Source: Escherichia coli (GTDB taxonomy: Bacteria; Pseudomonadota; Gammaproteobacteria; Enterobacterales; Enterobacteriaceae). Taken from it: a stretch of 64,000 nucleotides of DNA. Shown here in pieces: positions 1 through 23,151 of this stretch (position 1 is its first letter; the number at the start of each line of letters is the position of its first letter). Location of the stretch: NCBI RefSeq assembly GCF_048403405.1, contig NZ_CP183129.1, one strand, 5' to 3'. A program made the translations under genes and the position numbers. Under the pieces are notes generated by a model that saw nothing but the letters and a program-made list of their open reading frames with translations, was not told where the DNA came from and did no database searches.

Positions 1-108
1 TAATAACTAGTTAATTAAAGTGGCATCCTCCCGCATCCTCTCTGATAATGACGGGATGCCGGGAGCAATCATGTCTGCTTCCTGAACTTTCTTCTGACAG
101 ATCAATGG

Positions 109-1083
109 ATGCCAGTAATGATTAGCGGCGTGCTGTACGCCCTGTTAGCAGGGTTGATGTGGGGGCTTATTTTTGTCGGGCCGTTGATCGTGCCGGAATA
201 CCCGGCGATGTTGCAGTCTATGGGGCGTTATCTGGCGTTAGGGTTAATTGCGCTGCCCATTGCCTGGCTGGGGCGCGTGCGTCTGCGTCAGTTGGCGCGT
301 CGCGACTGGCTTACCGCCTTGATGCTCACTATGATGGGCAACCTCATTTATTACTTCTGCCTTGCCAGTGCCATTCAACGTACTGGCGCGCCTGTTTCCA
401 CGATGATTATCGGCACCCTGCCGGTGGTCATTCCTGTCTTTGCCAATCTGCTTTATAGCCAGCGCGACGGCAAACTCGCGTGGGGAAAACTCGCCCCGGC
501 ACTGATTTGTATTGGCATCGGCCTGGCGAGTGTGAATATTGCTGAGTTAAACCACGGACTCCCCGATTTTGACTGGGCACGTTATACCTCTGGCATCGTG
601 CTGGCGTTAGTTTCCGTGGTCTGCTGGGCATGGTATGCCCTGCGCAACGCCCGCTGGCTGCGGGAAAATCCCGACAAACATCCGATGATGTGGGCGACGG
701 CGCAGGCGCTGGTCACGCTGCCGGTTTCGCTTATCGGCTATCTCGTCGCTTGTTACTGGCTGAATACGCAAACGCCGGACTTCTCCCTACCTTTTGGCCC
801 CCGTCCGCTGGTGTTTATTAGTCTGATGATTGCAATAGCCGTGCTTTGCTCATGGGTTGGCGCACTCTGCTGGAACGTCGCCAGCCAGCGATTACCGACA
901 GTGATTCTCGGGCCGCTGATTGTTTTCGAAACGCTGGCAGGTTTGCTGTACACCTTTTTGTTACGCCAGCAAATGCCGCCACTAATGACGCTGAGCGGTA
1001 TCGCACTGTTAGTGGTTGGCGTGGTCATTGCGGTCAGAGCAAAACCAGAAAAACCTTTAACTGAATCTGTCTCAGAAAGTTGA
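109..1083 (+). CDS. ytfF: DMT/EamA-family inner-membrane transporter YtfF
   Basis: ORF track 109..1083, 324 aa; very hydrophobic multi-helix protein; recognised as enterobacterial YtfF from recollection; alternative in-frame ATG at 118. Confidence 0.85.
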   Translation: MPVMISGVLYALLAGLMWGLIFVGPLIVPEYPAMLQSMGRYLALGLIALPIAWLGRVRLRQLARRDWLTALMLTMMGNLIYYFCLASAIQRTGAPVSTMIIGTLPVVIPVFANLLYSQRDGKLAWGKLAPALICIGIGLASVNIAELNHGLPDFDWARYTSGIVLALVSVVCWAWYALRNARWLRENPDKHPMMWATAQALVTLPVSLIGYLVACYWLNTQTPDFSLPFGPRPLVFISLMIAIAVLCSWVGALCWNVASQRLPTVILGPLIVFETLAGLLYTFLLRQQMPPLMTLSGIALLVVGVVIAVRAKPEKPLTESVSES

Positions 1084-1141
1084 CACGCTGGCAGTGAGTT
1101 AAATAAGCCTCTGCTACGTAAGGGTTATAGCTTTTGCCTTA

Positions 1142-1164
1142 AAGATGCATTTAAAATGCATCTT
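1142..1164. promoter_or_regulatory. NsrR operator: perfect 11-1-11 inverted repeat AAGATGCATTT-A-AAATGCATCTT in the ytfE promoter
   Basis: Perfect palindrome read directly at 1142..1164, 27 nt upstream of the ytfE ATG; matches the NsrR box known for ytfE and hmp. Confidence 0.6.
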
Positions 1165-1190
1165 ATCTTATTAAGAATGAGGTATCAGCT

Positions 1191-1853
1191 ATGGCTTATC
1201 GCGACCAACCTTTAGGTGAACTGGCGCTCTCTATTCCTCGCGCTTCGGCTCTGTTTCGTAAATATGATATGGATTACTGCTGCGGCGGTAAGCAAACGCT
1301 GGCGCGTGCGGCGGCACGTAAAGAACTGGATGTTGAGGTCATTGAAGCTGAGCTGGCAAAGCTTGCTGAACAACCGATTGAGAAAGACTGGCGTAGCGCC
1401 CCGCTGGCAGAAATCATCGACCATATCATCGTGCGCTACCACGATCGTCACCGCGAGCAACTGCCGGAGCTGATCCTGCAAGCGACTAAAGTCGAACGCG
1501 TTCACGCCGACAAACCGAGCGTGCCAAAAGGGCTGACAAAATACCTGACTATGCTGCATGAAGAGCTTTCCAGCCACATGATGAAAGAAGAGCAGATCCT
1601 CTTCCCGATGATCAAACAAGGCATGGGCAGCCAGGCAATGGGGCCAATCAGCGTAATGGAAAGCGAGCACGATGAAGCGGGTGAACTGCTGGAAGTAATC
1701 AAACACACTACCAATAACGTCACACCGCCGCCGGAAGCCTGCACCACCTGGAAAGCGATGTATAACGGCATTAATGAACTGATTGATGACCTGATGGAGC
1801 ACATCAGCCTGGAAAATAATGTGCTGTTCCCGCGCGCACTGGCGGGTGAGTGA
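1191..1853 (+). CDS. ytfE: Iron-sulfur cluster repair di-iron protein YtfE (RIC)
   Basis: ORF 1191..1853, 220 aa; N-terminal MDYCCGG motif and His/Glu-rich hemerythrin-like pattern; recognised as YtfE; NsrR box immediately upstream. Confidence 0.93.
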
Positions 1854-1856
1854 TCT

Positions 1857-1885
1857 AAAAGCTGGATGGCATTGCGCCATCCAGC
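1857..1885. terminator. Hairpin between convergent ytfE and cycA (GCTGGATGGC-ATTGC-GCCATCCAGC), A-run on the upstream side
   Basis: 10-bp perfect stem 1861..1870/1876..1885 with AAAA at 1857..1860, which gives a U-run for the minus-strand cycA transcript; weaker for ytfE. Confidence 0.45.
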
Positions 1886-1897
1886 ATGATAATGCGG

Positions 1898-3310
1898 TTA
1901 TTTCCGCAGTTCAGCAGCCCGCTTCTTACCAATAAACAACCAGCCCAGCCCCAGAGCGATAAACCACAGCGGGGTAACCAGCAGCGCCTGGCGGGTATCA
2001 TCTTCCAGTGTCAGCAGCACGACCACGAACACAAAGAATGCCATACATACCCAGCACATCAGCTTGCCGAGCGGCATCTTGTAGATTGATTTCTCATGCA
2101 AGTGCGGACGCTGTTTGCGATACACCAGGTACGAGCAAAGGATAATCGTCCAGACGAACATAAACAGAATCGCGGAAACGGTCGTGATCATCGTGAACGC
2201 ACCAATCACGCTGGGATTCACATACAGCATCACCACGCCGCCGAGCAGGCAGATGCAGGAGAAGGTCAGCCCTTTCGCGGGTACTGCGCGCTTAGAGAGT
2301 TTAGCGAACGCTTTCGGTGCCACACCTTCCTGCGCCAGACCAAACAGCATACGACTGGTAGAGAAGACGCCGCTGTTAGCGGAAGACGCCGCAGAGGTCA
2401 GCACCACAAAGTTGATCACGCTGGCAGCCGCAGGCAAACCTACCAACACAAACAGCTCAACGAACGGGCTTTTCTCCGGGACTACCGAACTCCACGGCGT
2501 CACGGACATAATCACAATCAGCGCGAAGACGTAGAACATAATGATACGGATCGGAATGGAGTTAATCGCGCGTGGCAGTGATTTCTCTGGATCTTTGGTT
2601 TCCGCAGCTGTTGTACCTACCAGCTCAATCCCTACGAAAGCGAAAACCGCTATCTGGAATCCGGCAAAGAAGCCACTTAAACCTTTCGGGAACCAGCCGC
2701 CATCATTCCACAAATGCGCGAATGACGCTTCCACACCGGTCGGTGACTGAAAGTGCATCGCCACCATGACCAGGCCGACGACAATCAGCGACACAATGGC
2801 GACGATTTTGATCATCGCAAACCAGAACTCCATCTCACCGAACATTTTCACGGTGGCGAGGTTGAGCGTCAGCAGCAGCACTATCACCGCCAGCGAGGCG
2901 ACCCAGTCGGAGAGCTCGGGGAACCAGAACTGAGCATAAGCCGTGATCGCCACCACGTCTGCCATACCGGTTACAACCCAGCAGAACCAGTAAGTCCAGC
3001 CGGTGAAATATCCTGCCCACGGCCCGAGTAAATCGGAAGCGAAGTCACTAAAAGATTTGTATTCCAGATTCGAAAGCAGCAATTCCCCCATTGCCCGCAT
3101 CACGAAAAAGAGCATAAAACCGATGATCATATAAACGAAAATGATCGACGGCCCGGCAAGGCTAATCGTTTTGCCGGACCCCATAAACAACCCCGTACCA
3201 ATGGCACCGCCAATGGCAATAAGCTGAATATGTCGGTTTGTGAGATTGCGCCGTAGCGACTGTTCAGCCGGAGCCTGATCATCGGCAACGACTTTTACCT
3301 GATCTACCAT
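1898..3310 (-). CDS. cycA: D-serine/D-alanine/glycine APC-family permease CycA
   Basis: ORF 1898..3310, 470 aa, 12-TM amino-acid permease; recognised as CycA. Confidence 0.93.
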   Translation of the reverse strand: MVDQVKVVADDQAPAEQSLRRNLTNRHIQLIAIGGAIGTGLFMGSGKTISLAGPSIIFVYMIIGFMLFFVMRAMGELLLSNLEYKSFSDFASDLLGPWAGYFTGWTYWFCWVVTGMADVVAITAYAQFWFPELSDWVASLAVIVLLLTLNLATVKMFGEMEFWFAMIKIVAIVSLIVVGLVMVAMHFQSPTGVEASFAHLWNDGGWFPKGLSGFFAGFQIAVFAFVGIELVGTTAAETKDPEKSLPRAINSIPIRIIMFYVFALIVIMSVTPWSSVVPEKSPFVELFVLVGLPAAASVINFVVLTSAASSANSGVFSTSRMLFGLAQEGVAPKAFAKLSKRAVPAKGLTFSCICLLGGVVMLYVNPSVIGAFTMITTVSAILFMFVWTIILCSYLVYRKQRPHLHEKSIYKMPLGKLMCWVCMAFFVFVVVLLTLEDDTRQALLVTPLWFIALGLGWLFIGKKRAAELRK

Positions 3311-3618
3311 GTTTTTTTCTTCCTGTACCTGTCTGTGTTGTTCAGGCTCTACGGCCTTTAGTCAGTCTATGATACGACGAATCTGTATCGGGACTCATCG
3401 ATATTAGGTAACAATACGCGGGATGAATACTAAGATTTAGATCTAATGTTAATTTTATGTTTAAAGTGAGTGTCATATCACGGTGATAACGCGAAACAGC
3501 TCACAAAAATACACGCTTACGCGGTCTTTGCAACACAAAATAGCGCCGTTTGGCAAACTGAAGGGTTTATTGCTGAATGCCTGCTCCCCTCTGGCTCGAG
3601 GGGAACAGAATGCGCTGC

Positions 3619-4239
3619 TTAGAGGATTTCCAGCAGTTCGACTTCAAACACCAGGGTGCTGAACGGAGGGATGGATGCGCCTGCGCCGCGCTCGCCATAT
3701 GCCAGTTCCTGCGGGATAGTCAGTTCCCATTTAGAACCTACCGGCATCAGAGTCAGTGCTTCAATCCAGCCAGGGATCACGCCATTAACCGGGAATTCAG
3801 CGGGTTCACCACGAGCAACGGAGCTGTCAAACACGGTGCCGTCGATCAGTTTACCGGTGTAATGAACACGAACGCGGTCGGTACGTGCCGGAATTGCGCC
3901 TTCACCCTGGTTGATCACGCGGAATTGCAGGCCAGATTCGGTGCTATTCACACCTTCTTTTTTGGCGTTTTCTTCCAGGTATTTCACACCTTCAGCAGCC
4001 ATCGCCTGGAAACGCTGACGACGAACGGCATCGGCGCGTTCGTGGATTTCACGCAGCGCGCGGTGCACCACATCAACCGGAACAGCCGGATGTTTGCCTT
4101 CCAGCGCATCGGCAATGCCTGCAACCAGTGCTTCTGGCAGCAGCCCTTCCAGGCCAGATTCACTCAGTTGTTGCCCTACCTGCAAACCAATGCCGTAGCT
4201 TGCTTGCGCTTCGATGGTGTCAAAAGTTGGGGTGGTCAT
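3619..4239 (-). CDS. fklB: FKBP-type peptidyl-prolyl cis-trans isomerase FklB
   Basis: Track ORF 3619..4398 extends upstream; internal ATG at 4239 gives MTTPTFD..., 206 aa, matching the FklB N-terminus; FKBP domain in the C-terminal half. Confidence 0.88.
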
Positions 4240-4456
4240 CGTATTTCCTTTCTTAGGGTATAAAGTAGCGGGCAGCATATCAGCCACACTTCTTTGGGTA
4301 AAACTTTGTCGCGGGAATGATGACAAATCCCGGGGAAAAAGAAACAATAGCAATATCCCGTATGAATATAATAAAGGCGGGTTTACCACGGACATCATAG
4401 CGTTAGCTTATTCATAGGCTATGATTGAGGAACAAGACGCGGAGCAGGAGGAAACC

Positions 4457-5095
4457 ATGCCCGGGCGCTTTGAACTAAAACCAACCCTGGAGAAAGTCTG
4501 GCACGCGCCAGACAATTTTCGCTTCATGGACCCGCTGCCGCCGATGCATCGTCGGGGGATCATTATTGCCGCCATTGTATTGGTGGTCGGATTTCTGCTT
4601 CCATCTGATGATACGCCCAACGCGCCGGTGGTGACGCGTGAAGCGCAGTTAGATATTCAGTCGCAATCACAACCACCGACAGAAGAACAGCTGCGGGCGC
4701 AATTAGTCACGCCACAAAATGATCCTGATCAGGTGGCTCCGGTCGCTCCAGAACCAATACAGGAAGGCCAGCCAGAAGAGCAGCCGCAACCCCCCCAAAC
4801 GCAACCATTCCAGCCAGATAGCGGAATTGATAATCAATGGCGCTCTTACCGTGTCGAACCCGGTAAAACGATGGCACAGCTGTTCCGCGACCACGGGCTG
4901 CCCGCTACCGATGTCTATGCAATGGCGCAGGTAGAAGGCGCGGGTAAGCCGCTGAGTAATTTGCAAAACGGGCAGATGGTGAAAATCCGCCAGAACGCCA
5001 GCGGCGTGGTGACGGGCTTAACCATTGATACGGGGAATAATCAACAGGTCTTGTTTACCCGCCAGCCGGATGGCAGTTTTATTCGTGCGCGGTAG
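4457..5095 (+). CDS. ytfB: Cell-division-associated OapA/LysM-domain protein YtfB
   Basis: Track ORF starts 4421; ATG at 4457 is preceded by AGGAGGA (4446..4452); 212 aa with one TM helix, a Pro/Gln-rich linker and a C-terminal OapA-like domain. Confidence 0.85.
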
Positions 5096-5404
5096 ATGAA
5101 GGGTCAACCAAAAGCCAGCTAAGGATTGTCTCTTTGATGACCTTACGTCTGGCTTCCAGTGCCTGGGGGAAACCATACTGATATGATAAACCAGGCCAAG
5201 CGTATGCTGGTTGATCAAATAATATCCCCCAAGCGCAGCAATATTAATATACACCTGCAATGGGTCGATATCTGGCTTAAAAATATTGTGTTTCTTCCCT
5301 TCATCCAATAAGGATTCCATTAACTGCAAGTGCGCATGATTAATTTCTAAGAGACGCTGTGATTTTGCATAATGCACACCTTTACTTTGGTTTTCACTAT
5401 GCAC
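5018..5404 (-). pseudogene. ytfA: Decayed TetR-family regulator remnant (ytfA-like); only the C-terminal effector-domain-like part is encoded
   Basis: ORF 5018..5404, 128 aa; central segment resembles TetR C-terminal domains but no HTH N-terminus is encoded, and the frame runs 78 nt into the 3-prime end of ytfB. Confidence 0.45.
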
Positions 5405-5751
5405 AATTTTTAAAAACCTGGGATTAGCAATATAATAATTCCATGTAAAATCAATAATTTCTCAATGGCACTTGTGTCTGGTTAACCTGCTGATTAACGA
5501 ACTTACCGATACCGACAGCGTAGAATAATTACATACCGCACAACAAGAATGTATGGTGTAAGGCGTTGTCAGTCATCTCCCTCCCTGGGTGCATCGTTAT
5601 ATCCGTGATGAGCGATTTTTGATATTAATATCTTTTACTATCCGCTATTTTCACCACTTCAGAAAACAAACTTATTTTTATTAATATCAACTCTTTTTCT
5701 TTGAACATTCAACTGCGATATTTGTAAAAATATTAAACAGGCAACAATAAA

Positions 5752-6546
5752 ATGACATTACCAACCACTATTTATTCATTTCCTGCATATTCACCCCGTT
5801 TTTCGTCCACCGACAAACCAGTAAAATTAAAATTTCATCAATACGCACGCGCTACATTACTTTCAAATCGTGGAAGAGACCATAATTGCGATGGCAGACA
5901 TACTGTTGAGATCCACAAACTAGATCTCTCAGACTGGCAAGCATTCAATAAGTTAGCGACGAGGTGTAATACTTACGATGGAATAACAATGAATGGTGAT
6001 AATTCTTTTGGATGGAACCATGAAGCTACATTAGATAATATTCACGCCCAGAAATACAATAAAGCTTACGCGGGTGCGAGGTTAACCGCAGAACTGAAAT
6101 ATTTATTGCAAGATGTTGAATCCTTCGAACCCAACAGTAAATACACAATACACGAGGTTGTTTTGGGACCTGGTTATAGTACTCCAGACTATACCGGCCA
6201 AACGATAGGATACGTTGTAACCCTTCCTGCCCAAATGCCTAATTGCTGGTCATCTGAACTACCAACAATCGATCTTTATATCGACCAACTTCGCACTGTT
6301 ACAGGCGTTTCTAATGCCCTCGGATTCATCATTGCTGCATTGCTAAACGCGTATTCTGATTTACCCCATGATTTGAAAATTGGTCTGCGTTCCTTATCAA
6401 GTTCAGCAGCAATCTACTCGGGTTTGGGTTTCGAGCGAGTGCCGCAGGAGCGAGACATAAGGAGTGATCGTATGCATCTAACGCCAGCAAACCATCCTGA
6501 ATTATGGACACAAGAGAATGGTGAATGGATCTACTTGCGAAACTAA
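5752..6546 (+). CDS. yjfZ: Uncharacterized protein YjfZ (DUF2686 family)
   Basis: ORF 5752..6546, 264 aa, preceded by about 350 nt of very AT-rich sequence; recognised as YjfZ, function unknown. Confidence 0.8.
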   Translation: MTLPTTIYSFPAYSPRFSSTDKPVKLKFHQYARATLLSNRGRDHNCDGRHTVEIHKLDLSDWQAFNKLATRCNTYDGITMNGDNSFGWNHEATLDNIHAQKYNKAYAGARLTAELKYLLQDVESFEPNSKYTIHEVVLGPGYSTPDYTGQTIGYVVTLPAQMPNCWSSELPTIDLYIDQLRTVTGVSNALGFIIAALLNAYSDLPHDLKIGLRSLSSSAAIYSGLGFERVPQERDIRSDRMHLTPANHPELWTQENGEWIYLRN

Positions 6547-6568
6547 TACCTAACGAAAAATAGAAAGC

Positions 6569-6596
6569 AAAACGCCGACCAGTGGTCGGCGTTTTT
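6569..6596. terminator. Bidirectional intrinsic terminator between convergent yjfZ and rplI
   Basis: AAAACGCCGACC-AGTG-GTCGGCGTTTTT: 10-12 bp GC stem flanked by an A-run and a T-run, so it serves both strands. Confidence 0.65.
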
Positions 6597-6616
6597 ACGT
6601 CTCGTTGAATAACGAA

Positions 6617-7078
<462 letters not shown>

Positions 7079-7107
7079 TCAAAGTCGTATTAATGGACCG
7101 TGACCGA

Positions 7108-7654
<547 letters not shown>

Positions 7655-7660
7655 CAGAAA

Positions 7661-8074
<414 letters not shown>

Positions 8075-8382
8075 TTATTCAGCCTCCTGTCTGGGTCAGC
8101 CGAATCCCGGGGAGGCAAGGAACGTGTTAAAGGTCGGCTGAAAAATGACGCGTTATAGTACTGACATACCCCGCTAAACTCAAGGCCAGCCGACAAATAA
8201 ATCTCATCTTTCACCAAATCGTACTAACACGCTGATTTGAAGTTCATCACACTTCATCATGGTGTTTTTTTGAACAACTGCATCAGAAATGGTCACCATC
8301 AACTTCTTTATCATTGATTAAAATTAAATCAGAAGATCATCACAGAGGAGAGCACACAAAGTCAGCCGTTGAGGAGGTATCT

Positions 8383-8658
8383 ATGTTCAGTCGTGTTTTA
8401 GCCCTTCTGGCTGTGCTTTTGCTAAGTGCAAATACATGGGCAGCCATTGAAATTAATAACCACCAGGCCAGAAATATGGACGATGTGCAAAGCTTAGGCG
8501 TGATTTATATCAACCATAACTTCGCCACTGAAAGTGAAGCACGTCAGGCATTAAATGAAGAGACAGATGCGCAGGGCGCAACGTACTACCATCCGATCCT
8601 GATACGGGAACCGGGAAGTAACGGCAATATGCACGCCAGCGCGGATATTTATCGCTAG
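8383..8658 (+). CDS. yjfY: Small secreted DUF1471 (YhcN-family) protein YjfY
   Basis: Track ORF starts 8314; ATG at 8383 is preceded by GAGGAGG; 91 aa with an N-terminal signal peptide (MFSRVLALLAVLLLSANTWA). Confidence 0.8.
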   Translation: MFSRVLALLAVLLLSANTWAAIEINNHQARNMDDVQSLGVIYINHNFATESEARQALNEETDAQGATYYHPILIREPGSNGNMHASADIYR

Positions 8659-8698
8659 CACCAGGTATAACCAACGAAACATTGCCATAGTTTGCTTT

Positions 8699-8723
8699 GC
8701 CCCCTTCGCAGGGGGCTTTTTTT
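8699..8723 (+). terminator. Intrinsic terminator downstream of yjfY
   Basis: GCCCCC-TTCGCA-GGGGGC hairpin followed by TTTTTTT at 8717..8723. Confidence 0.65.
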
Positions 8724-8786
8724 GAAAAACGGCTGCGGAATTAGACCAGTTATCTCCCGAAGAAGGAAATTTCCGCAGCGCGTGTT

Positions 8787-9473
8787 TTACTTCTGCCCGT
8801 AATAAGCGTTGGGACCGTGCTTACGCATGAAGTGTTTATTCATGAGGTAGCTGTCGATGTGATTCAATTGTGGGTTAATGCCGCGGGCAATCCACGCCAT
8901 TTTTGCCACTTCTTCCATCACCACCGCGTTATGCACCGCATCGTGAGCATCTTTCCCCCAGGCGAACGGCCCGTGCTGGTACACCACAATCCCCGGTGTA
9001 TGCAGAGGCTCGGCGTTGCCCAGCGTTTCGATAATCACTTTGCCGGTGTTCAGTTCGTACTCACCCTGCACCTCTTCTTCGCTTAATCCGCGCGTACACG
9101 GGATATCACCAAAGAAGTAGTCGGCGTGCGTAGTGCCTAACGCCGGGATCGCCAGCCCCGCCTGCGCCCATGCGGTAGCATGAGTGGAGTGGGTATGGAC
9201 AATGCCGCCAAGCGACGGATAACGACGGTAGAGTTCGAGATGCGTCGCGGTGTCGGAAGACGGGCGATATTCCCCTTCCACCACCTTGCCGCTCATATCA
9301 ACCACCACCATATCGGCCGCTTTCATGGTTTCGTAGGCAACGCCGCTGGGCTTGATCACCACCAGCCCGCGTTCGCGGTCAATGGCGCTGACGTTGCCCC
9401 AGGTAAAGGTCACCAGCCCGTAGCGCGGCAGATCCATGTTGGCTTCAAATACCTGCTGTTTTAGCTTTTGCAT
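8787..9473 (-). CDS. ulaF: L-ribulose-5-phosphate 4-epimerase UlaF
   Basis: Track ORF 8787..9521; ATG at 9473 (MQKLKQQVF...) gives 228 aa; class II aldolase/epimerase fold; start overlaps the ulaE stop in TAATG. Confidence 0.9.
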
Positions 9474-10327
9474 TATGCCGCCTCCACCATGCCCGCTTTC
9501 GCCATGCGCGCTTTCACCCAATCACGCGCTTTCGCCACTTCTGCCGCCGGGTCTTCCGCCGTTTCGCTCCACATCTCAATCAGGTACGGCCCGCAATAGC
9601 CACTCTGTTTGAGCGTTTCGAAGCAACGTTCGAAATCCACCACACCTTCGCCAAACGGCACGTTTTTGAAGACGCCTGGTTTGGTGTCTTTCACATGCAC
9701 CGCGACGATATGCCCAATTCCGGCCTGCAATTCCATCTGCACGTCGTTGTCCCACGCCGACAGGTTGCCGATATCCGGGTAGAGCTGGAACCACGGGTTG
9801 TTGAGATAGTGCGCGTAACCCAACGCCTTACTGATGGAGTTCATCAACGGGTAATCCATGATCTCCATCGCCAGCGTCACCTGCGCGCGGCTTGCCATCT
9901 CAACGCTCTCTTTCAGGCCGTCACGGAAACGACGACGCGTTTCGTTATTGGCTTCCTGATAGTAAACGTCATAGCCCGCCAGTTGGATTACGCGAATGCC
10001 AACGTCCTGGGCGAACTGGATAGCTTTACGCATAATCTCCAGCCCCTGCGCCCGTACCGCGTCATCTTCGCTGCCCAGCGGGAAACGACGATGAGCAGAA
10101 AGGCACATGGACGGTACGCGCACGCCGGTTTCAACAATCGCATTCACCAGCGCCAGACGCTGCTCGCGGCTCCAGTCGAGGCGCGACAGGCGATCGTCTG
10201 TTTCATCTACCGACATCTCGACAAAATCGAAGCCTAACGTTTTTGCCAGTTGCAGCCGTTCCAGCCAGCACTCCCCGGCGGGAAGCGCTTTTTCATAGAT
10301 GCCAAGCGGGATTTGTTTGGACAACAT
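9473..10327 (-). CDS. ulaE: L-xylulose-5-phosphate 3-epimerase UlaE
   Basis: ORF 9473..10327, 284 aa, TIM-barrel sugar epimerase; recognised as UlaE. Confidence 0.9.
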
Positions 10328-10336
10328 ATCCGCTCC

Positions 10337-10987
10337 TTAGCCCCACAGTTCGGCAATGGAACGTTTGAACTGACGCGCAGCTTCAACCGGAGAAGCGGCA
10401 TCACGGATACTGCGACCAGCGATAAACACATGAATCGGAATGCCTTTGAACAGCGGCAGATCTTCCAGCGCCAGGCCACCGGTGACGGTCACTTTAAAGC
10501 CCATATCGGACAGACGTTTGATCGCGGTAATGTCAGCTTCGCCCCACGCCACGCCTGCGGCCTGCGCGTCACGGCTGCGGTGATAAACCACCTGCTGAAT
10601 ACCTGCGTCGCGCCACTGTTGCGCCTGTTCCCAGGTCCAGTAACCGGTCAGTTCGATCTGCACGTCGCCGTTAAACTCTTTTGCCACGTCCAGCGCACCT
10701 TTGGCGGTGTTGATATCCGCACAGCAAATCACGGTCACCCAGTCAGCGTTGGCTTCAAAGCACATACGAGAAAGGATTTTGCCCGCATCGGCAATTTTGG
10801 CGTCTGCCAGCACGATTTTGTGCGGGTAAAGCGCTTTCAGATCGCGAACCGCACGCACGCCTTCGCCCACGCACAGAATGGTACCCACTTCGATAATGTC
10901 GACTTCTTCGGCAATCAGGCGAGTGGTTTCATAGGCGCTATCCATAGTCTGGTTGTCCAGCGCGACCTGCAACATCGGTAATGACAT
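10337..10987 (-). CDS. ulaD: 3-keto-L-gulonate-6-phosphate decarboxylase UlaD
   Basis: Track ORF to 11026; ATG at 10987 gives [11 protein letters not shown]..., 216 aa, OMP-decarboxylase-like fold. Confidence 0.9.
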
Positions 10988-11000
10988 GTTCAATTCCTTC

Positions 11001-11465
11001 TTAAGCTGCCGCGTTGGTGCGGTCAATTAAATCCAGTACTTCCTGCTCGGTACGGCAGGCACGTAAACGGTCGAAATTCTCTTCATCTTCAAACAGATTG
11101 ACGATCTGCATGATGCCCACTTCCTGGTGAGTGTTGGCATCGACCGCCGCCATGGTGATGAGGATATCCACCGGATCGTTATCTTCGTGGTTGAACTCCA
11201 GCGGCTTTTTCAGCGTCACTAGCGCAAAACCGGTTTTCTTAACGCCCTCTTCCGGGCGACCGTGCGGCATTGCCAGGCCTGGTGCGAGCACAAAGTACGG
11301 ACCGTGCTGTTCAACCGCATCCAGAATCGCCTGGTAGTAACGCGGCTCGACAACATCCGCCGCTACCAGCAGGTCAACGCCGATTTTTACTGCGTCCTGC
11401 CATGTCTCAGCTTCAGCCTGCAGGCGGATGGATTTATTTTCCGCCAGCGAATCACGTAATTTCAT
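11001..11465 (-). CDS. ulaC: Ascorbate-specific PTS enzyme IIA UlaC
   Basis: ORF 11001..11465, 154 aa; recognised as UlaC. Confidence 0.9.
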
Positions 11466-11474
11466 GGCGCGTCC

Positions 11475-11780
11475 TTACTTCACATCCTGCGGGAAATGCG
11501 CTTTGATCACTTCCAGCAGTTTCGGGCCAAAGTCAGCAGGAGAGAGCATGTTGCGCACGCCAACCACGTATTTGTTGCCGGTCACGGTGATTTCGCCCGC
11601 AATGTGCGTAGAAGCGATGATGATATCCGCGCCGCTCAACTCGCTTTTGTATTCGCCAACCGCGCAGCTGTTTACCGTGTGGTCAATGTTTGATTGGGTT
11701 AAAAACTGGTCCACTTTCATCTTCATGATCATGGAACTGCCTTGTCCGTTGCCACACACAGCCAGAATACGTACGGTCAT
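11475..11780 (-). CDS. ulaB: Ascorbate-specific PTS enzyme IIB UlaB
   Basis: ATG at 11780 gives [16 protein letters not shown]..., 101 aa, with the active Cys in the CGNG motif. Confidence 0.9.
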
Positions 11781-11795
11781 AATCAAAACTCCTTA

Positions 11796-13547
<1,752 letters not shown>

Positions 13548-14612
13548 ATGAGTAAAGTGAAAAGTATCACCCGTGAATCCTGGATCCTGAGCACTTTCCC
13601 GGAGTGGGGTAGCTGGCTGAATGAAGAAATTGAACAAGAGCAGGTCGCCCCTGGCACATTTGCGATGTGGTGGCTAGGCTGCACCGGGATCTGGCTGAAA
13701 TCAGAAGGTGGCACCAACGTTTGCGTTGATTTCTGGTGCGGCACTGGCAAACAAAGTCACGGTAACCCGTTAATGAAACAGGGTCACCAGATGCAGCGCA
13801 TGGCTGGCGTGAAAAAACTGCAGCCAAACCTGCGCACCACCCCGTTTGTTCTTGATCCGTTTGCGATTCGCCAGATCGACGCGGTACTGGCGACTCACGA
13901 TCACAACGATCATATCGACGTTAACGTCGCTGCTGCCGTGATGCAGAACTGTGCTGATGACGTACCGTTCATTGGACCGAAAACCTGCGTTGATTTGTGG
14001 ATTGGCTGGGGCGTACCGAAAGAGCGTTGCATCGTGGTCAAACCGGGCGATGTTGTAAAAGTGAAAGACATTGAAATTCATGCGCTTGACGCTTTCGACC
14101 GTACTGCACTGATCACCCTGCCTGCCGATCAAAAAGCGGCTGGCGTACTGCCAGATGGCATGGACGATCGCGCAGTAAACTACCTGTTCAAAACCCCTGG
14201 CGGTTCCCTGTATCACAGTGGCGATTCCCACTACTCTAACTATTATGCGAAGCACGGTAACGAACATCAGATCGATGTGGCGTTAGGATCGTACGGTGAG
14301 AACCCGCGCGGTATTACCGACAAAATGACCAGCGCCGATATGCTGCGTATGGGTGAAGCCCTGAATGCGAAAGTGGTTATCCCGTTCCACCACGACATCT
14401 GGTCAAACTTTCAGGCCGATCCGCAAGAAATCCGCGTGCTGTGGGAGATGAAAAAAGATCGTCTGAAGTATGGCTTCAAGCCGTTTATCTGGCAGGTGGG
14501 CGGCAAATTTACCTGGCCGTTGGATAAAGACAACTTCGAGTACCACTATCCGCGTGGTTTCGATGATTGCTTCACTATTGAACCGGATCTGCCGTTCAAG
14601 TCATTCCTGTAA
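13548..14612 (+). CDS. ulaG: L-ascorbate-6-phosphate lactonase UlaG (metallo-beta-lactamase fold)
   Basis: ATG at 13548 gives [10 protein letters not shown]..., 354 aa; HDHNDH metal-binding motif present. Confidence 0.9.
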
Positions 14613-14625
14613 TCTGTCGTTTATA

Positions 14626-14657
14626 CCGGATAGCGTGGAGTAGTTCGCGCTATCCGG
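14626..14657 (+). terminator. REP-like hairpin downstream of ulaG (CCGGATAGCG ... CGCTATCCGG)
   Basis: 10-bp inverted repeat with a 12-nt loop, 14 nt after the ulaG stop; only a weak T-tract follows. Confidence 0.4.
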
Positions 14658-14719
14658 CGTAGTATTTCCTGGCTATTTCAAATATCATCTAAAAAAATCA
14701 AATTTTATCGGAATAGCTC

Positions 14720-15475
14720 ATGACTGAAGCACAAAGACATCAAATCCTCCTGGAAATGCTCGCACAATTGGGCTTTGTGACCGTTGAGAAAGTCGTTGAG
14801 CGTCTGGGAATTTCGCCTGCCACTGCGCGACGCGATATCAATAAACTTGACGAAAGCGGCAAACTGAAAAAAGTGCGCAATGGCGCAGAAGCTATTACCC
14901 AGCAGCGCCCACGCTGGACGCCGATGAATCTGCATCAGGCGCAGAATCACGATGAAAAAGTACGTATTGCTAAAGCGGCCTCGCAGCTGGTTAATCCGGG
15001 CGAAAGCGTAGTCATCAACTGCGGCTCCACCGCGTTTCTGCTTGGGCGGGAAATGTGTGGCAAGCCTGTGCAAATCATCACTAATTATCTACCGCTGGCA
15101 AATTACCTGATCGATCAGGAGCATGACAGCGTGATCATTATGGGCGGACAATACAACAAAAGTCAGTCCATCACTTTAAGCCCGCAAGGCAGCGAAAACA
15201 GTCTCTATGCCGGGCACTGGATGTTTACCAGCGGCAAAGGGCTGACAGCAGAAGGGTTGTATAAAACCGATATGCTGACGGCAATGGCAGAGCAGAAGAT
15301 GCTAAGCGTGGTAGGGAAACTGGTGGTACTGGTTGATAGCAGTAAGATTGGCGAACGCGCGGGAATGCTTTTTAGCCGTGCCGATCAAATCGATATGCTG
15401 ATCACCGGCAAAAATGCTAACCCGGAAATCCTGCAACAACTGGAAGCGCAAGGGGTCAGCATTCTGCGTGTTTAA
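14720..15475 (+). CDS. ulaR: DeoR-family HTH repressor of the ula operon, UlaR
   Basis: ORF 14720..15475, 251 aa; N-terminal HTH and DeoR C-terminal sugar-phosphate-binding domain. Confidence 0.9.
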
Positions 15476-16221
15476 AGATGCTGCCGGAAAAATGTCACGG
15501 CAGCATCTAACGCCTCAGGCGTAATGCGGTGACGCACGCCTGGCTGCCATGAACAGGTTAGCAGTTTATCCCGTCCCGTCTCGCTTAAGGCCTGCTGCAA
15601 ACGTAGTGATTCGTCGGCAGGCACGACGTCATCGTCAAGGCCATGCCACAGCAGTAGAGGTCTGTCACCAAGTTGTTCCAGGTGGTTTGTCGCTTCCCAC
15701 TCTGCCAGCGGCGCGACAATGTTATTGAATTCATTCTGCTGTGCTGCCGTTTCAGGTATCAGCGGTGGAAACAGTGAACGGGCGAGCGATGTAAAATAGC
15801 CCGATCCCATCATGCTGGCGGTACATTTCACCGTGGGGTGGCGAGCGGTAATTCCCAGTGCCGTCATCGCGCCCATCGACGCGCCACCGACTGCCAGACG
15901 GTCAGCAAGCAGCCAGTTTTCTTCGGCTATTGCCGCACGTAACGTAGTGAATTCCTGCATGCTTTGTAGCAAAATTTGCCAAAATTGATTTAACCGCCGC
16001 GCTGCGTCGCCCCTAAAACGGCTACCGTGATCGGGCGCATCCGGCATGATCACTCGCAAACCAGCCTGCGCCAGCGCAACGGCAAAATAGCTATACACCA
16101 GACTGGACGAAGTAAAGCCGTGATAAAAAATCGCGCACGGTAACGGGGTATCTTTTTGCCCGGCAGGATAAGCATGAAGAACGGGAATATCTGCCAGCTC
16201 GCGTGATTCTATTTCAATCAT
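15472..16221 (-). CDS. yjfP: Alpha/beta-hydrolase esterase YjfP
   Basis: ORF 15472..16221, 249 aa; GASMG serine-hydrolase motif; stop codon overlaps the ulaR stop on the opposite strand (TTAA). Confidence 0.85.
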
Positions 16222-16402
16222 CTGTCTCTCCTTTTTGTCTGGTATGACATGAAGAAATCCTTAGCACAAGTTTCTGCTGGCGGTATTAGTTCATAATGTT
16301 GAGATGTGGGTTACGCTTTCGTCACGTTTTCATTCGAAAATCGCGTACCAGGTAACAATTCGGGAACATTCCCCCAAAGTTAAATTAATAAGGCACTACA
16401 CT

Positions 16403-16732
16403 ATGGTTAGCAGGAAACGTAATAGCGTTATTTACCGGTTTGCCAGTTTATTATTGGTGTTGATGTTAAGTGCCTGTAGCGCACTGCAAGGTACGCCACA
16501 GCCAGCACCGCCAGTAACGGACCATCCGCAAGAGATTCGCCGCGACCAGACGCAAGGGTTACAGCGAATAGGTAGCGTAAGCACGATGGTTCGGGGTTCT
16601 CCGGATGACGCATTAGCAGAAATCAGAGCGAAAGCTGTCGCTGCAAAAGTTGATTATTACGTTGTCGTCATGGTGGACGAAACCATCGTGACAGGACAGT
16701 GGTATTCACAAGCCATTTTGTACCGTAAATAA
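16403..16732 (+). CDS. bsmA: DUF1471 lipoprotein BsmA (YjfO)
   Basis: Track ORF from 16304; ATG at 16403 gives MVSRKRNSVIYRFASLLLVLMLSAC... with a lipobox; 109 aa. Confidence 0.8.
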   Translation: MVSRKRNSVIYRFASLLLVLMLSACSALQGTPQPAPPVTDHPQEIRRDQTQGLQRIGSVSTMVRGSPDDALAEIRAKAVAAKVDYYVVVMVDETIVTGQWYSQAILYRK

Positions 16733-16880
16733 ATCAGACAACTTACATAGTCAGCTTTACATTGCTTTGCGTCCCTATGCGTTTACCTGTGCACAATAAA
16801 TTACCGGCTGGAAGCTCGGGCGTTTATTACCGCGATGGAATGCCCTGCAACATGTGGGGAAACGAAAAATGGAGCTGACG

Positions 16881-17156
16881 ATGAAACAATTACTTGCCTC
16901 ACCCTCGCTGCAATTAGTGACTTATCCTGCGAGCGCCACGGCACAGTCTGCAGAATTCGCCAGTGCTGACTGCGTGACAGGCCTGAATGAAATAGGTCAG
17001 ATCTCAGTTAGCAATATTTCAGGGGATCCGCAGGACGTGGAACGTATCGTGGCGTTAAAGGCCGATGAACAAGGTGCGTCATGGTACCGCATTATTACCA
17101 TGTACGAAGACCAGCAGCCTGATAACTGGCGCGTACAGGCGATACTGTATGCATGA
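16881..17156 (+). CDS. yjfN: DUF1471 small periplasmic protein YjfN
   Basis: ATG at 16881 gives MKQLLASPSLQL..., 91 aa; paralogous to BsmA and YjfY. Confidence 0.8.
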   Translation: MKQLLASPSLQLVTYPASATAQSAEFASADCVTGLNEIGQISVSNISGDPQDVERIVALKADEQGASWYRIITMYEDQQPDNWRVQAILYA

Positions 17157-17181
17157 GTATCATCTACAGCAAATGAACAAT

Positions 17182-17215
17182 GCCGGATGCGGCGCGAGCG
17201 CCTTGTCCGGCCTAT
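17182..17215. repeat. REP (repetitive extragenic palindromic) element between convergent yjfN and aidB
   Basis: GCCGGATGCGGCGCGAGCGCCTTGTCCGGCCTAT closely matches the enterobacterial REP consensus. Confidence 0.65.
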
Positions 17216-17272
17216 AATTTTCACATATTTCATTGAGTTAATTGAAACCAGCGTTGCATCAGTCGTATACGC

Positions 17273-18898
17273 TTACACACACACTCCCCCCGTCGCCCGC
17301 AGCAATAAATCATTCTGGATCTGCTCTGACAACCGTACGCCGCCGCGCGTATCTAACATCACCTGACACCACGCCTGCGCCATTGGCGGAGAGGCATATT
17401 TCAACATTTGCGCACCGCAGCCCAGCAGGAATAGCTGATGAGTAATCTCTCGCCCCAGTTCTTCAGCAGGCTTACGCAGCTGCTGCTGTAAACGACGTAC
17501 CGCGCGATCAAAATAGCGATCCTGCCCTTTCACTTCCACAAATGCTTCCGACAATAAGTCGTATACACCCGCTTGCTTATTGAGCACGCGCAGTACATCC
17601 AGGCACATAATATTACCGGAACCTTCCCAAATACTGTTTACCGGTATCTCCCGGTAAAGCCGCGGCAGCTCGCTCTCCTCGCAATAACCAATGCCGCCCA
17701 GCACCTCCATCGCTTCGGCCACAAACGGCATACCTCGTTTGCAGATCACAAATTTCGCCGCAGGCGTAAATAAACGCGCCCACAGAGCTTCTTTGGCATC
17801 GGCACGCCGGTCCCACGCTCGCGCAAGACGAAACAGCAACGCCGTTTGCCCTTCAAGCTGAAGTGCCATGCGACTTAAGACATGACGCATAAGGGGCTGT
17901 TGGATCAATGGATTACCAAAAACATGGCGTTGATGTGCATGATAAATCGCTAGCGAAAATGCACGGCGCATCATGGCATGGCTACCCAGGGCGCAATCAA
18001 AACGCGTCATCCCACCCATTTTCAGGATCAGACGAATTCCTTCCCCTTCCTGCCCCAACAACCAGCCAATGGCATCCTGAAACTCCACTTCGCAGCTGGC
18101 GTTAGAGCGATTACCCAGCTTATCTTTCAGCCGCTCGAGGCGAATCGCGTTGCGTTGCCCGTCAGGCAAAAAGCGCGGCACAAAAAAGCAGGACAAACCG
18201 CCCGTAGTCTGCGCCAGCACCAGATGCGCATCGCTTTGCGGCACCGAGAAAAACCATTTATGCCCCACCAGCCGATAAGAGCCATCTTCCAGGCGCTCTG
18301 CGCGGGTGGTGTTGCTCATGACATCGGAACCGCCCTGCTTTTCCGTCATTCCCATGCCAATCAACAAACCGCGTTTTTGCCCACCTGGCAATAAGTGAGA
18401 ATCGTAGCGATCGCTCAACAGCGGCGTGGTCCAGTCCTGAAACGGCGCGGGTAACATCTGTAACAGCAATGGCATGGCGGCAAAGGTCATCGTTATCGGA
18501 CATAACGACCCTGCCTCAACCTGTGCGTGCAACATAAAACGCGCCGCGCGCGCCACAAATGCGCCGGAGCGAGCGTCTTCTTCCCAGGCAAGATTGTGCA
18601 CCCGATTGGTACATAGCGCCTGCATCAGCAGGTGCCAGGCGGGGTGAAAACGCACATCGTCCAGACGCCGCCCCTGGGCATCGTAGCGCAATAATTCAGG
18701 CGGATTCACATTCGCCAGCCGCCCCAGTTCAAGGGATTCAGCCGTCCCTAACTGCTGACCAATACTGGCTAGAAAATCGCTATCCCAGCCAGCACCTTCA
18801 CGCGTTACCGCTTCGCAGAGCGCGCCATCAGACAGGTATAAGTTGCTGTTATTTAATGGCATAGGTTGATTAAAAACGGTGTGAGTTTGCCAGTGCAC
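17273..18898 (-). CDS. aidB: Acyl-CoA dehydrogenase-family adaptive-response protein AidB
   Basis: ORF 17273..18916; conventional GTG start at 18898 gives MVHWQTHTVF..., 541 aa; in-frame ATG at 18913 is an alternative. Confidence 0.9.
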   Translation of the reverse strand: MHWQTHTVFNQPMPLNNSNLYLSDGALCEAVTREGAGWDSDFLASIGQQLGTAESLELGRLANVNPPELLRYDAQGRRLDDVRFHPAWHLLMQALCTNRVHNLAWEEDARSGAFVARAARFMLHAQVEAGSLCPITMTFAAMPLLLQMLPAPFQDWTTPLLSDRYDSHLLPGGQKRGLLIGMGMTEKQGGSDVMSNTTRAERLEDGSYRLVGHKWFFSVPQSDAHLVLAQTTGGLSCFFVPRFLPDGQRNAIRLERLKDKLGNRSNASCEVEFQDAIGWLLGQEGEGIRLILKMGGMTRFDCALGSHAMMRRAFSLAIYHAHQRHVFGNPLIQQPLMRHVLSRMALQLEGQTALLFRLARAWDRRADAKEALWARLFTPAAKFVICKRGMPFVAEAMEVLGGIGYCEESELPRLYREIPVNSIWEGSGNIMCLDVLRVLNKQAGVYDLLSEAFVEVKGQDRYFDRAVRRLQQQLRKPAEELGREITHQLFLLGCGAQMLKYASPPMAQAWCQVMLDTRGGVRLSEQIQNDLLLRATGGVCV

Positions 18899-18981
18899 TG
18901 TGTCTCCCTCCATCAATGGCAGTCACCATTAGTATGGTCACTGCCATGGATTCATGACAGAAAGAGATTGCTAAAACATTC

Positions 18982-20145
18982 TTATCCAGCAATGTAATGC
19001 GGAACGAAACGTGAGGTGTCTTTGGTGATCAGCGTGTTATCTTCACGGATCCCCATTCCGCACGCTTCATCATCGACAATCCAGCTACCGATGAGTGTGT
19101 AGCTATCGCCAAATCGCGGCAGAGGTTGAAACGCCTGGTAGATCATCGGTTCATCGGCGTAATCACCATCAGCGTGGTCAACGACGTTATTCTGACCGTC
19201 GAAAATGGTGACGTTTCCGCCTTCGCGTGAGTAGATCGGTTTACGCACATAGCTTTCGCCAGCGGCAATCTGCGGTTTTTCGCCCTCAAACCAGGATGCA
19301 AGAAGGTTAGGATGACCAGGAAAGAAGCGCCAAAGCAGCGGCATTAACCCTTTGTTGCTCAAGATACTTTTCCATAACGGCTCCACCCATTGCTCGCGGC
19401 GCTTGCGCAGCAGCGGACCGTTATCGTCACGCATCATCCACTCCAGCGGATACAGCTTAAATGCACGCTGGATGACATTATCATCAAGATCGGTCAGTAC
19501 GCCGCCGACGCCCAAACCGAGATCTTCAATGTAGATAAACCGCGACTCCTGCCCTGCCTGCTGGGCGCAGTCCTGCAAGTACAGCACGGTACTCCTGTCT
19601 TCATCGGTGTCCTGACAGCAGCAAAAATAAAACGGTTCCCGACTGTAAAGCTCGCTAAAGCGCGAAATCAGGCGTTCCTGAATGGCATTGTACTGATCGG
19701 CATCACGCGGAATAATGCCGCTGCGCCGGGCATCCTCCAGCCACAGCCACTGGAAATAAGCCGATTCATACAACGAGGTTGGCGTATCGGCGTTGTACTC
19801 CAGCAGCTTCACCGGCGCATTGCCACACCAGGCAAAATCCATCCGGCCATAGAGCGAAGGATCGCGTGCGCGCCAGCTTTCGGCGATCACATCCCAGTAC
19901 AACGGCGGGATCGCCAGTTGCGTCAGGATCTCTTCGTCTTTAACCGCGCAATCCACCACCTCAAGGCACATCTGATGCAGTTCCGCAGTTGGTTTTTCGA
20001 TCTGCTCTTCAATCTGACGCAGGGTAAAGCGGTAAGCCCGACTCTCATCCCAATAGATTTCATTGTCGATGATATGAAAGTCGAAACCGTTGTCAGCGGC
20101 GATCTGGTCCAGATCCCGCCGCACAGGAACGTTGTGTCTCAGCAT
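18982..20145 (-). CDS. yjfC: ATP-grasp ligase of the glutathionylspermidine-synthetase-like family, YjfC
   Basis: Track ORF to 20160; ATG at 20145 gives MLRHNVPVRRD..., 387 aa; last gene of the yjfI-C cassette. Confidence 0.85.
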   Translation of the reverse strand: MLRHNVPVRRDLDQIAADNGFDFHIIDNEIYWDESRAYRFTLRQIEEQIEKPTAELHQMCLEVVDCAVKDEEILTQLAIPPLYWDVIAESWRARDPSLYGRMDFAWCGNAPVKLLEYNADTPTSLYESAYFQWLWLEDARRSGIIPRDADQYNAIQERLISRFSELYSREPFYFCCCQDTDEDRSTVLYLQDCAQQAGQESRFIYIEDLGLGVGGVLTDLDDNVIQRAFKLYPLEWMMRDDNGPLLRKRREQWVEPLWKSILSNKGLMPLLWRFFPGHPNLLASWFEGEKPQIAAGESYVRKPIYSREGGNVTIFDGQNNVVDHADGDYADEPMIYQAFQPLPRFGDSYTLIGSWIVDDEACGMGIREDNTLITKDTSRFVPHYIAG

Positions 20146-20147
20146 GA

Positions 20148-20786
20148 TTAGCCTCCCCAATGCCCACGGGCGCTGGAAGAACGACCATAGCCGCCGCGAG
20201 AAACGGTTGACGCTTTTTTGGTGGTAAAGCCGCCCGAAGAGTAAGACTCTTTTTTGCCAGAACCGGAGCGCCAGGAGTAATCACCAGAAGTGTTGCGCCA
20301 GACGGGGCGCGAAGCAAAAGAGGAACCGCCGCTGTTATACACAAACTGCTCGTCGCGATCTTTACGAATAACCCGGCTTAACAAAAATCCAGAAACAACC
20401 GGGATCCAACTCTGTTCAACGTTGTCGTAGTAACAATTTTCATACTTAGACTGACAATTCTGCTGAGTCATATTCTTCGGAACATCGGCATAAAACGCCG
20501 CTTTGGCGTTGTTCCAGCCATGAGCACAGATATCTGAATTATTACCGTCATCAATACAATCCTGCACAGTCGAGTAAAACGTTCCGTCGCCGTCGTTATC
20601 GACATCGCCATTATCGCCACAACCTTTCAATACGAAAAAAGCGGCACCGCCCATTAGCACCAACGTTAAGTATTTTTGTGCGTAGCGATTGCGGCGCGGC
20701 TCAAAAGGATTATGCGGTCTTCCAATGCGACTGATCGCTCCGTGACCAATTTTACTGTTATTTCTTGATTTGCGTTTTCTGGCCAT
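20148..20786 (-). CDS. yjfM: DUF1190 bitopic membrane protein YjfM
   Basis: ORF 20148..20786, 212 aa; basic N-terminus, one TM helix, Asp-rich GDNGDVDNDGDG loop, Cys-containing domain, Gly/Ser/Tyr/Arg-rich tail. Confidence 0.8.
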   Translation of the reverse strand: MARKRKSRNNSKIGHGAISRIGRPHNPFEPRRNRYAQKYLTLVLMGGAAFFVLKGCGDNGDVDNDGDGTFYSTVQDCIDDGNNSDICAHGWNNAKAAFYADVPKNMTQQNCQSKYENCYYDNVEQSWIPVVSGFLLSRVIRKDRDEQFVYNSGGSSFASRPVWRNTSGDYSWRSGSGKKESYSSGGFTTKKASTVSRGGYGRSSSARGHWGG

Positions 20787-20795
20787 GATCGTCCA

Positions 20796-21194
20796 TTACC
20801 ATGTCATACAAGCTGCGTTAAAAATACCGCCAGCCAGTGCGGCGGTTCCCATAAACATTCCTGCTGCGGTATTGTGATTAATAATTTTTTCGCTTAATGC
20901 GGGCATATAAAGTCTGACGCCAGCAAAAACGAGTAACTGAATCACCAGTGCGATCCCGCCCCAGGCGAAATAGTCTGGAATACTCACCGCATTGATTGCC
21001 GCACTGGATAACGGGATCACGTAACCCAACAATGTACCGCTGAACGCCAGTGACGCCGCGGTATTATTGTTTTTGATTAACTGCCATTCGTTGTGCGGTG
21101 TAATTTTAGAATAGATAAACAGAAAAATAATCACCATAGCCACGCCAATAAAAAAATAGGCACTAAAGGCAAGAAGTGAATCCAGTATATGCAT
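20796..21194 (-). CDS. yjfL: DUF350 inner-membrane protein YjfL
   Basis: ATG at 21194 gives MHILDSLLAFSAYFFIGVAMV..., 132 aa, about 4 TM helices. Confidence 0.8.
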   Translation of the reverse strand: MHILDSLLAFSAYFFIGVAMVIIFLFIYSKITPHNEWQLIKNNNTAASLAFSGTLLGYVIPLSSAAINAVSIPDYFAWGGIALVIQLLVFAGVRLYMPALSEKIINHNTAAGMFMGTAALAGGIFNAACMTW

Positions 21195-21211
21195 TGTAAA
21201 CGTCCTTGTAA

Positions 21212-21871: not shown

Positions 21872-21891
21872 ATTTTATCCTTAAAATAGTT

Positions 21892-21914
21892 GCCAGCCTT
21901 GCAGTGAGGCTGGC
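21892..21914 (-). other. Intra-operon stem-loop between yjfJ and yjfK (GCCAGCC-9 nt-GGCTGGC)
   Basis: 7-bp GC stem directly after the yjfJ stop codon, preceded on the transcript by U7 and followed 5 nt later by UUUU. Confidence 0.4.
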
Positions 21915-21921
21915 AAAAAAA

Positions 21922-22620: not shown

Positions 22621-22638
22621 AAATACCCGTCCTTGTAA

Positions 22639-23040: not shown

Positions 23041-23119
23041 ATATTATTCCATATAAATTAAGTTTAAATATTAATAAAATGAATATTTGCAGTACGTAAT
23101 TATCTTACCAGCTATAGAC

Positions 23120-23151
23120 AAAAAAAAACCATCCAAATCTGGATGGTTTTT
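23120..23151 (-). terminator. Strong intrinsic terminator after rlmB (A9-CCATCCA-AATC-TGGATGG-T5; symmetric, bidirectional in form)
   Basis: 7-bp stem flanked by a 9-nt A-run and a T-run; read on the minus strand it is hairpin plus U9, directly downstream of the rlmB stop. Confidence 0.65.

Follow-up and report, generated by a model that had tools for sequence, protein, structure and literature searches.

A classical NsrR operator at ytfE in Escherichia coli and the natural allele that makes it a perfect palindrome

NsrR is an iron-sulfur (Fe-S) repressor that is inactivated by nitric oxide (NO) (PMC5320621; PMC9052748). A binding site upstream of ytfE (dnrN) was predicted by Rodionov et al. 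2005 (PMC1274295), and the corresponding operator of E. coli K-12 has been described (Bodenmiller & Spiro 2006; Partridge et al. 2009). The closest published counterpart of the locus analyzed here is that of E. coli CFT073, in which the top entry for NsrR sites in Table 4 of Mehta et al. 2015 (PMC5320621), with the best score in the strain (ln P -25.13), is a 23-mer upstream of ytfE. In this strain, an NsrR ChIP-seq peak with 9.65-fold enrichment was located 50 bp upstream of ytfE, and transcription of the gene increased 69.6-fold in the presence of nitrate (PMC5320621). Furthermore, loss of nsrR in Salmonella raised ytfE expression 544-fold, placing the gene among the most strongly derepressed members of the regulon. 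In EHEC, a PytfE reporter gave no signal until an NO donor was supplied, which induced it strongly (PMC7336997). The promoter also serves as a nitric-oxide biosensor promoter, e.g., in EHEC (PMC7336997).

Like the E. coli protein, NsrR of Streptomyces coelicolor, which acts at the hmpA1, hmpA2 and nsrR operators, is a [4Fe-4S] repressor of the Rrf2 family that loses DNA binding in the presence of NO. Its mechanism has been characterized biochemically, it shares approximately 39% protein identity with E. coli NsrR (PMC9052748), and its regulon consists of three promoters, its own included. In other Gammaproteobacteria and in Bacillaceae, operators of hmp and nsrR follow the same 23-mer pattern as the ytfE operator, often as a perfect palindrome (Rodionov et al. 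2005). These operators usually represent the T/A version AAGATGTATTT-N-AAATACATCTT and are positioned 12-100 bp upstream of the homologues in Acinetobacter, Legionella, Methylobacter, Virgibacillus and others, their target being hmp or nsrR, whereas it is ytfE in the DNA studied here. In many of those genomes nsrR adjoins the target and is probably autoregulated; in contrast, E. coli nsrR lies 25 kb away from ytfE and is preceded by a lone half-site.

The DNA under study, hereafter the window, is the whole analyzed stretch of 64,000 nucleotides from an E. coli chromosome (contig NZ_CP183129.1). Its chromosomal origin was evident from the 301 bp around the operator, which were matched in 5,416 of 5,426 complete E. 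coli genomes. Within the window, the following features of the ytfE region were distinguished:

109..1083, plus strand: ytfF, gene of a DMT-family transporter and upstream neighbour of ytfE; its stop codon lies 59 bp before the operator.
1119..1131, plus strand: upstream block TAAGGGTTATAGC, conserved in Enterobacterales ytfE promoters (consensus AAAGGGkTATAkC from 42 aligned upstream regions).
1142..1164, no strand: NsrR operator of ytfE, a perfect 11-1-11 inverted repeat, AAGATGCATTT-A-AAATGCATCTT.
1142..1152, plus strand: promoter-distal half-site AAGATGCATTT, scoring 15.53 of a possible 15.64 bits.
1154..1164, minus strand: promoter-proximal half-site (AAGATGCATTT on this strand), likewise scoring 15.53 of a possible 15.64 bits.
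1152..1157, plus strand: candidate -10 hexamer TAAAAT in the centre of the operator, proposed from its sequence.
1158, plus strand: polymorphic base, position 17 of the operator; G here, giving the perfect repeat, and A in K-12, O157:H7 and most E. coli.
1179..1182, plus strand: Shine-Dalgarno sequence GAGG of ytfE, conserved, 8 nt before the ATG.
1191..1853, plus strand: ytfE, encoding the di-iron RIC protein of 220 aa; annotated as ytfE in matching genomes.

A preceding sequence-only reading of the window had noted a perfect 23-bp palindrome of 11-1-11 architecture at ytfE, and both parts of this statement were reproduced. A repeat search returned arms of 11 nt each (1142-1152 and 1154-1164) that are 100% complementary and separated by a 1-nt spacer; pairing of the arms stops at 11 nt because positions 1141 and 1165 are both A. 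The layout is that of an E. coli-type NsrR operator, with both halves reading AAGATGCATTT. The repeat ends 27 bp before the ATG of the downstream gene, whose product matches the NCBIfam YtfE equivalog NF008221 with 417.3 bits (cut-off 254). Compared to K-12, YtfE differs at a single residue, namely Glu203 in place of Asp (codon 1797..1799), which is a conservative replacement near the C-terminus.

The operator was also considered unusually ideal in that reading, and this assessment held up quantitatively. Allowing up to three mismatches, the window contains a single instance of the 23-mer pattern, and 100 shuffles that preserved the dinucleotide composition contained none. A weight matrix was built from the 25 other distinct NsrR sites of Table 4 in PMC5320621 (50 half-sites), i.e., with ytfE excluded. 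On this matrix the ytfE operator reaches 31.06 bits, followed among the published sites by hcp with 26.4 bits; no other published site thus comes as close to the NsrR consensus. The top scores of the 100 shuffled windows averaged 14.0 bits (sd 2.1), and the largest of them, 20.8 bits, lies 10 bits below the score of the operator. The full 23-mer, AAGATGCATTTAAAATGCATCTT, agrees with the CFT073 operator in sequence, downstream gene and distance to the start codon; the site itself is without differences, the window originating from another lineage. Hence, 1142..1164 is the classical NsrR operator of ytfE, and its exact sequence has already been published.

The regulator is encoded in the same window. 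The corresponding features are:

26469..26894, minus strand: nsrR (141 aa, GTG start), encoding the Rrf2-family [Fe-S] NO-sensing repressor; directly upstream of rnr.
23989..26430, minus strand: rnr (RNase R), immediately downstream of nsrR.

The identification and location of nsrR upstream of rnr, as put forward previously, were borne out. Its product matches the NCBIfam NsrR equivalog NF008240 over the full length (1-141) with 292.8 bits (cut-off 182). The protein is identical to that of K-12, the gene carrying three silent nucleotide differences, and Cys91, Cys96 and Cys102, the three conserved C-terminal ligands of the Fe-S cluster, are present. As in K-12, the start codon is GTG (26892..26894, minus strand). 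Concerning rnr, the mechanically called open reading frame begins with a GTG at 26472 and overlaps the nsrR stop codon by 4 nt. This overlap is probably not real, since the match to the RNase R profile starts at residue 15 and the rnr ATG of K-12 is situated 38 nt past the nsrR stop; judged by these comparisons, the ATG at 26430 is probably the true start.

The distance of approximately 25 kb between nsrR and ytfE, likewise pointed out in the sequence-only reading, is found in K-12 with the same spacing (nsrR at 4,406,190 and ytfE at 4,431,983). The linkage is simply conserved E. coli gene order. A functional meaning of the distance was considered and discarded, as the spacing is the same in K-12 and nothing assigns a role to it.

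The motif scan of the whole window that had been suggested for finding further NsrR sites yielded none above chance. The second-best full site scored 12.5 bits, which is below the mean shuffle maximum of 14.0 bits. Half-sites with up to two mismatches numbered 16 in the window compared to 24.7 expected, i.e., they are not enriched. Outside ytfE, the best lone half-site is AAAATACATTT at 26921..26931 (plus strand, 13.3 bits), located 27-37 bp in front of the GTG start codon of nsrR, where it overlaps a TATAAAT sequence that resembles a -10 element. K-12 has the same half-site sequence. The partner half matches in 4 of 11 bases, and a half-site as good or better was obtained in 89% of the shuffles, so that the score is within chance expectation for 64 kb. 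The ChIP-seq paper on CFT073 reports no NsrR peak upstream of nsrR and never mentions purA (PMC5320621). Autoregulation of E. coli nsrR via AAAATACATTT is therefore unsupported in view of the poorly matching partner half, the chance-level score and the missing CFT073 peak. In Legionella, Methylobacter and others, full operators were observed upstream of nsrR homologues.

Further elements of the window were recorded as follows:

6570..6596: palindrome AAAACGCCGACC-AGT-GGTCGGCGTTTT with a GC-rich stem, preceded by an A-run and followed by a T-run.
8054..8138, minus strand: RpsF leader, Rfam match at the gathering threshold.
40430..40846, minus strand: three identical-scoring tRNA genes in tandem, Rfam match at the gathering threshold.
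55794..55840, minus strand: Guanidine-II (mini-ykkC) riboswitch aptamer, Rfam match at the gathering threshold.

The first of these contains, at 6571, the only further perfect palindrome of 11-1-11 layout in the window and represents an ordinary intrinsic terminator that probably works in both directions. The RpsF leader, the tRNA trio and the Guanidine-II aptamer are all expected in this region of the E. coli chromosome. The haplotype of positions 1..25000 is rare: across these 25 kb, identity of 99% or more was reached by only eight complete E. coli genomes, the rest being 95-99% identical. Six genomes, including strains 4621, TUM1226, TUM14771, GN02461 and MS 69-1, match this part of the window at approximately 100%.

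Independent support for the motif as an NsrR operator was obtained across species. Scanning one genome per species for AAGATGYATTTNAAATRCATCTT returned at least 120 loci from other species. Among the 120 loci listed, 106 lie no more than 250 bp upstream of, and are oriented toward, a homologue of ytfE, hmp or nsrR; since the loci were picked by the motif itself, these numbers bear on association and position rather than on conservation of the site. The 106 loci are distributed over ytfE (41), hmp (33), divergently arranged hmp and nsrR (10) and nsrR (22). The taxa among the loci listed range from Enterobacterales to Acinetobacter, Legionella, Methylobacter and Bacillaceae, and this association, as far as comparative sequence data go, supports the assignment of the motif as an NsrR operator across bacteria. 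Perfect palindromes accounted for 71 of the 120 loci listed; judged by this sample, perfect versions of the motif are commonplace.

For a closer comparison, 42 ytfE-linked sequences, i.e., the window and the 41 other-species loci among the matches listed, were oriented by the gene. In these Enterobacterales ytfE promoters, the distance between repeat and start codon is fixed at 23-27 bp, even though the genera have unrelated DNA farther upstream. Considering the polymorphic position in the distal and proximal half, 20 operators are of the C/G type (perfect, as in the window), 18 of the C/A type (as in K-12), three are T/G and one is T/A. In imperfect operators, the mismatch is nearly always promoter-proximal (18 C/A compared to 3 T/G), a raw count in which kinship is ignored. 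The conserved block at 1119..1131 sits 11-23 bp upstream of the operator between variable flanks. In several genera it reads AGGGGTA, resembling a NarL/NarP heptamer, and it could also be a promoter element. Moreover, in Enterobacter, Kluyvera and a Citrobacter-like genome, a CRP-like palindrome, TTTGTGA-N6-TCACA, was observed approximately 50 bp upstream of the NsrR operator (loci L010, L023, L040, L060, L069, L077, L100, L103 and L113). In E. coli, the end of ytfF occupies the position of this palindrome, so that the architecture of the ytfE promoter may differ between genera.

Regarding the promoter itself, a consensus scan of positions 1000..1950 found no canonical sigma-70 promoter upstream of ytfE, and TAAAAT at 1152..1157 is the sole good -10-like hexamer at the operator. 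The inverted repeat reportedly shares bases with the -10 element at the promoters of ytfE, hmp and ygbA. The ytfE operator of the window may likewise cover its -10 element. In this case, the polymorphic base would directly follow the -10 element and could affect promoter strength as well as repressor binding.

The following mode of action is proposed. A homodimeric NsrR carrying an iron-sulfur cluster would shut off the ytfE promoter at the palindrome, presumably with one monomer per 11-bp half-site (consensus AANATGCATTT) and the halves 1 bp apart. As the operator probably covers the -10 element, bound NsrR would exclude RNA polymerase by occlusion. Nitrosylation by NO of the cluster held by the three cysteine ligands would then release NsrR from the DNA and lead to strong induction of ytfE, the repressor being supplied in trans from the distant minus-strand gene. 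It is almost certain that the palindrome is the operator through which NsrR represses ytfE and that NO relieves this repression. Nothing was found that contradicts the assignment as an NsrR operator.

The sequence-only reading had called ytfE an Fe-S repair gene. This is one proposed function; biochemically, Crack et al. 2022 have shown YtfE to be an NO-generating nitrite reductase, and YtfE and NsrR were suggested to monitor cytoplasmic nitrite jointly (PMC9052748). The same reading had concluded from the perfection of the repeat that ytfE is tightly repressed and strongly NO-inducible. The behaviour as such is documented in CFT073, Salmonella and EHEC. Its derivation from perfection is weak, because strains of the K-12 type already show tight repression despite one mismatch, and the scores of the two alleles lie only about 0.6 bit apart.

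Two other explanations of the palindrome were weighed against its function as a protein-binding site. It might mainly act as an RNA hairpin, i.e., as a weak intrinsic terminator or attenuator of read-through from ytfF. A scan indeed flagged the plus strand as terminator-like (10 pairs and a loop of three, followed by ATCTTATT), the palindrome lies shortly behind the ytfF stop codon with no other plus-strand terminator between ytfF and ytfE, and the folded RNA reaches -11.4 kcal/mol (z-score -2.85). However, the G+C-rich stem and U-run of a Rho-independent terminator were not found in the operator palindrome: three of the 10 stem pairs are G-C, and the tail, ATCTTATTAA, contains no proper U-run. 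Moreover, the distance to the ytfE start codon is kept where the upstream sequence is unrelated, a terminator of ytfF leaves unexplained why the palindrome also precedes hmp and nsrR homologues in distant taxa, and in CFT073 the identical sequence is occupied by NsrR in vivo (PMC5320621). Termination as the main function is thus very improbable and was rejected on account of the weak stem and tail and the position across species; a minor secondary role is possible. The idea that the repeat is a chance product of AT-rich intergenic DNA, or the site of a different regulator such as IscR, FNR or Fur, is hardly credible at all. It could draw on a review according to which ytfE is derepressed in fnr and fur mutants, but the review sees no recognizable FNR or Fur site at ytfE, and the effects are thought to be indirect. 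Chance is excluded by the complete lack of matches in the 100 shuffles and by the 10-bit lead over the best of them, and the motif tracks genes of the NsrR regulon across phyla.

Comparison with K-12 MG1655, one O157:H7 strain and two other strains revealed what could not be seen from the window alone, namely that, by these alignments, the perfection of the palindrome is a matter of allele. The intergenic region is otherwise almost invariant, and all four aligned strains read ...AAAATACATCTT, with A at 1158 where the window has G. The K-12 operator represents the same locus with the same 11-1-11 layout and shares 22 of 23 bases, the surrounding 126 bp being otherwise identical, as is the NsrR protein. 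The A of K-12 converts the proximal half-site to AAGATGTATTT, which has one mismatch. The K-12 allele is already the strongest NsrR site of its genome.

The frequencies of both alleles were determined in 5,426 complete E. coli genomes by exact searches with 30-mers designed so that a match requires the allele. Of the genomes searched, 959 (17.7%) carried the G allele, which makes the repeat perfect, and 4,176 (77.0%) the A allele. Independent searches with 60-mers gave 884 and 3,396 exact matches, respectively. Carriers of the G allele include Nissle 1917, an O121 STEC, CFT073 and many others, and according to these counts G at 1158 is a common natural allele. Beyond E. coli, representatives of E. 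albertii, Citrobacter and Kluyvera carry A, and many of Enterobacter, Lelliottia and Pseudescherichia carry G. On the weight matrix, the G allele scores 31.06 and the A allele 30.44 bits, both being far above all other published sites and above chance.

Whether this base matters to the cell has to be judged from several lines of evidence. The G allele might differ functionally from the K-12 allele, with tighter NsrR binding, lower basal ytfE expression, a higher NO threshold and more repressor sequestered. This is unlikely, though some observations would fit. Both alleles segregate at appreciable frequency (18% and 77% of the 5,426 genomes), G is found on several genomic backgrounds, as follows from there being a mere eight genomes with at least 99% identity to the window over 25 kb, and C is favoured over T at the half-site position (0.59 vs 0.34 in the 50 published half-sites). 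Furthermore, the excess of proximal over distal mismatches in imperfect Enterobacterales ytfE operators (18 vs 3) hints at a competing constraint, e.g., promoter function, and a constraint on the base behind the putative -10 element might explain this bias. On the other hand, the asymmetry is a raw count that ignores shared ancestry, T is itself common at the half-site position, and the predicted gap between the alleles amounts to just 0.6 of about 31 bits. The early NsrR consensus, gATGyAT-N5-ATrCATc, accepts either base at the polymorphic position. Strains with the A allele (EHEC EDL933, K-12) already combine tight repression with strong inducibility, and the related genera show 20 perfect and 21 imperfect operators, as near-neutral drift predicts. 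Slightly more doubtful still is the specific proposal that A/G at 1158 is a functional cis-regulatory variant, possibly trading repressor affinity against promoter strength. Such a trade-off could arise because the base belongs to a half-site and at the same time directly follows the probable -10 element.

The amount of repressor would also come into play. Translation of nsrR is said to be inefficient, which would keep NsrR scarce. If it is scarce, strong operators such as that of ytfE can titrate it, and the allele could shift the amount of free repressor left for the rest of the regulon.

In summary, a textbook regulatory site was recognized from raw sequence; this adds nothing new to the biology, and the window was confirmed to carry an intact NsrR-ytfE circuit. 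If the A/G variant were functional, basal YtfE and the NO threshold would differ between E. coli lineages, among them those of the uropathogen CFT073 and of the probiotic Nissle 1917. The polymorphism would then provide a clean natural case of single-base tuning of a stress-response threshold, with a small predicted effect. For the design of biosensors, the availability of two natural operator alleles (18% perfect and 77%) may help with leakiness or with shifting the threshold.
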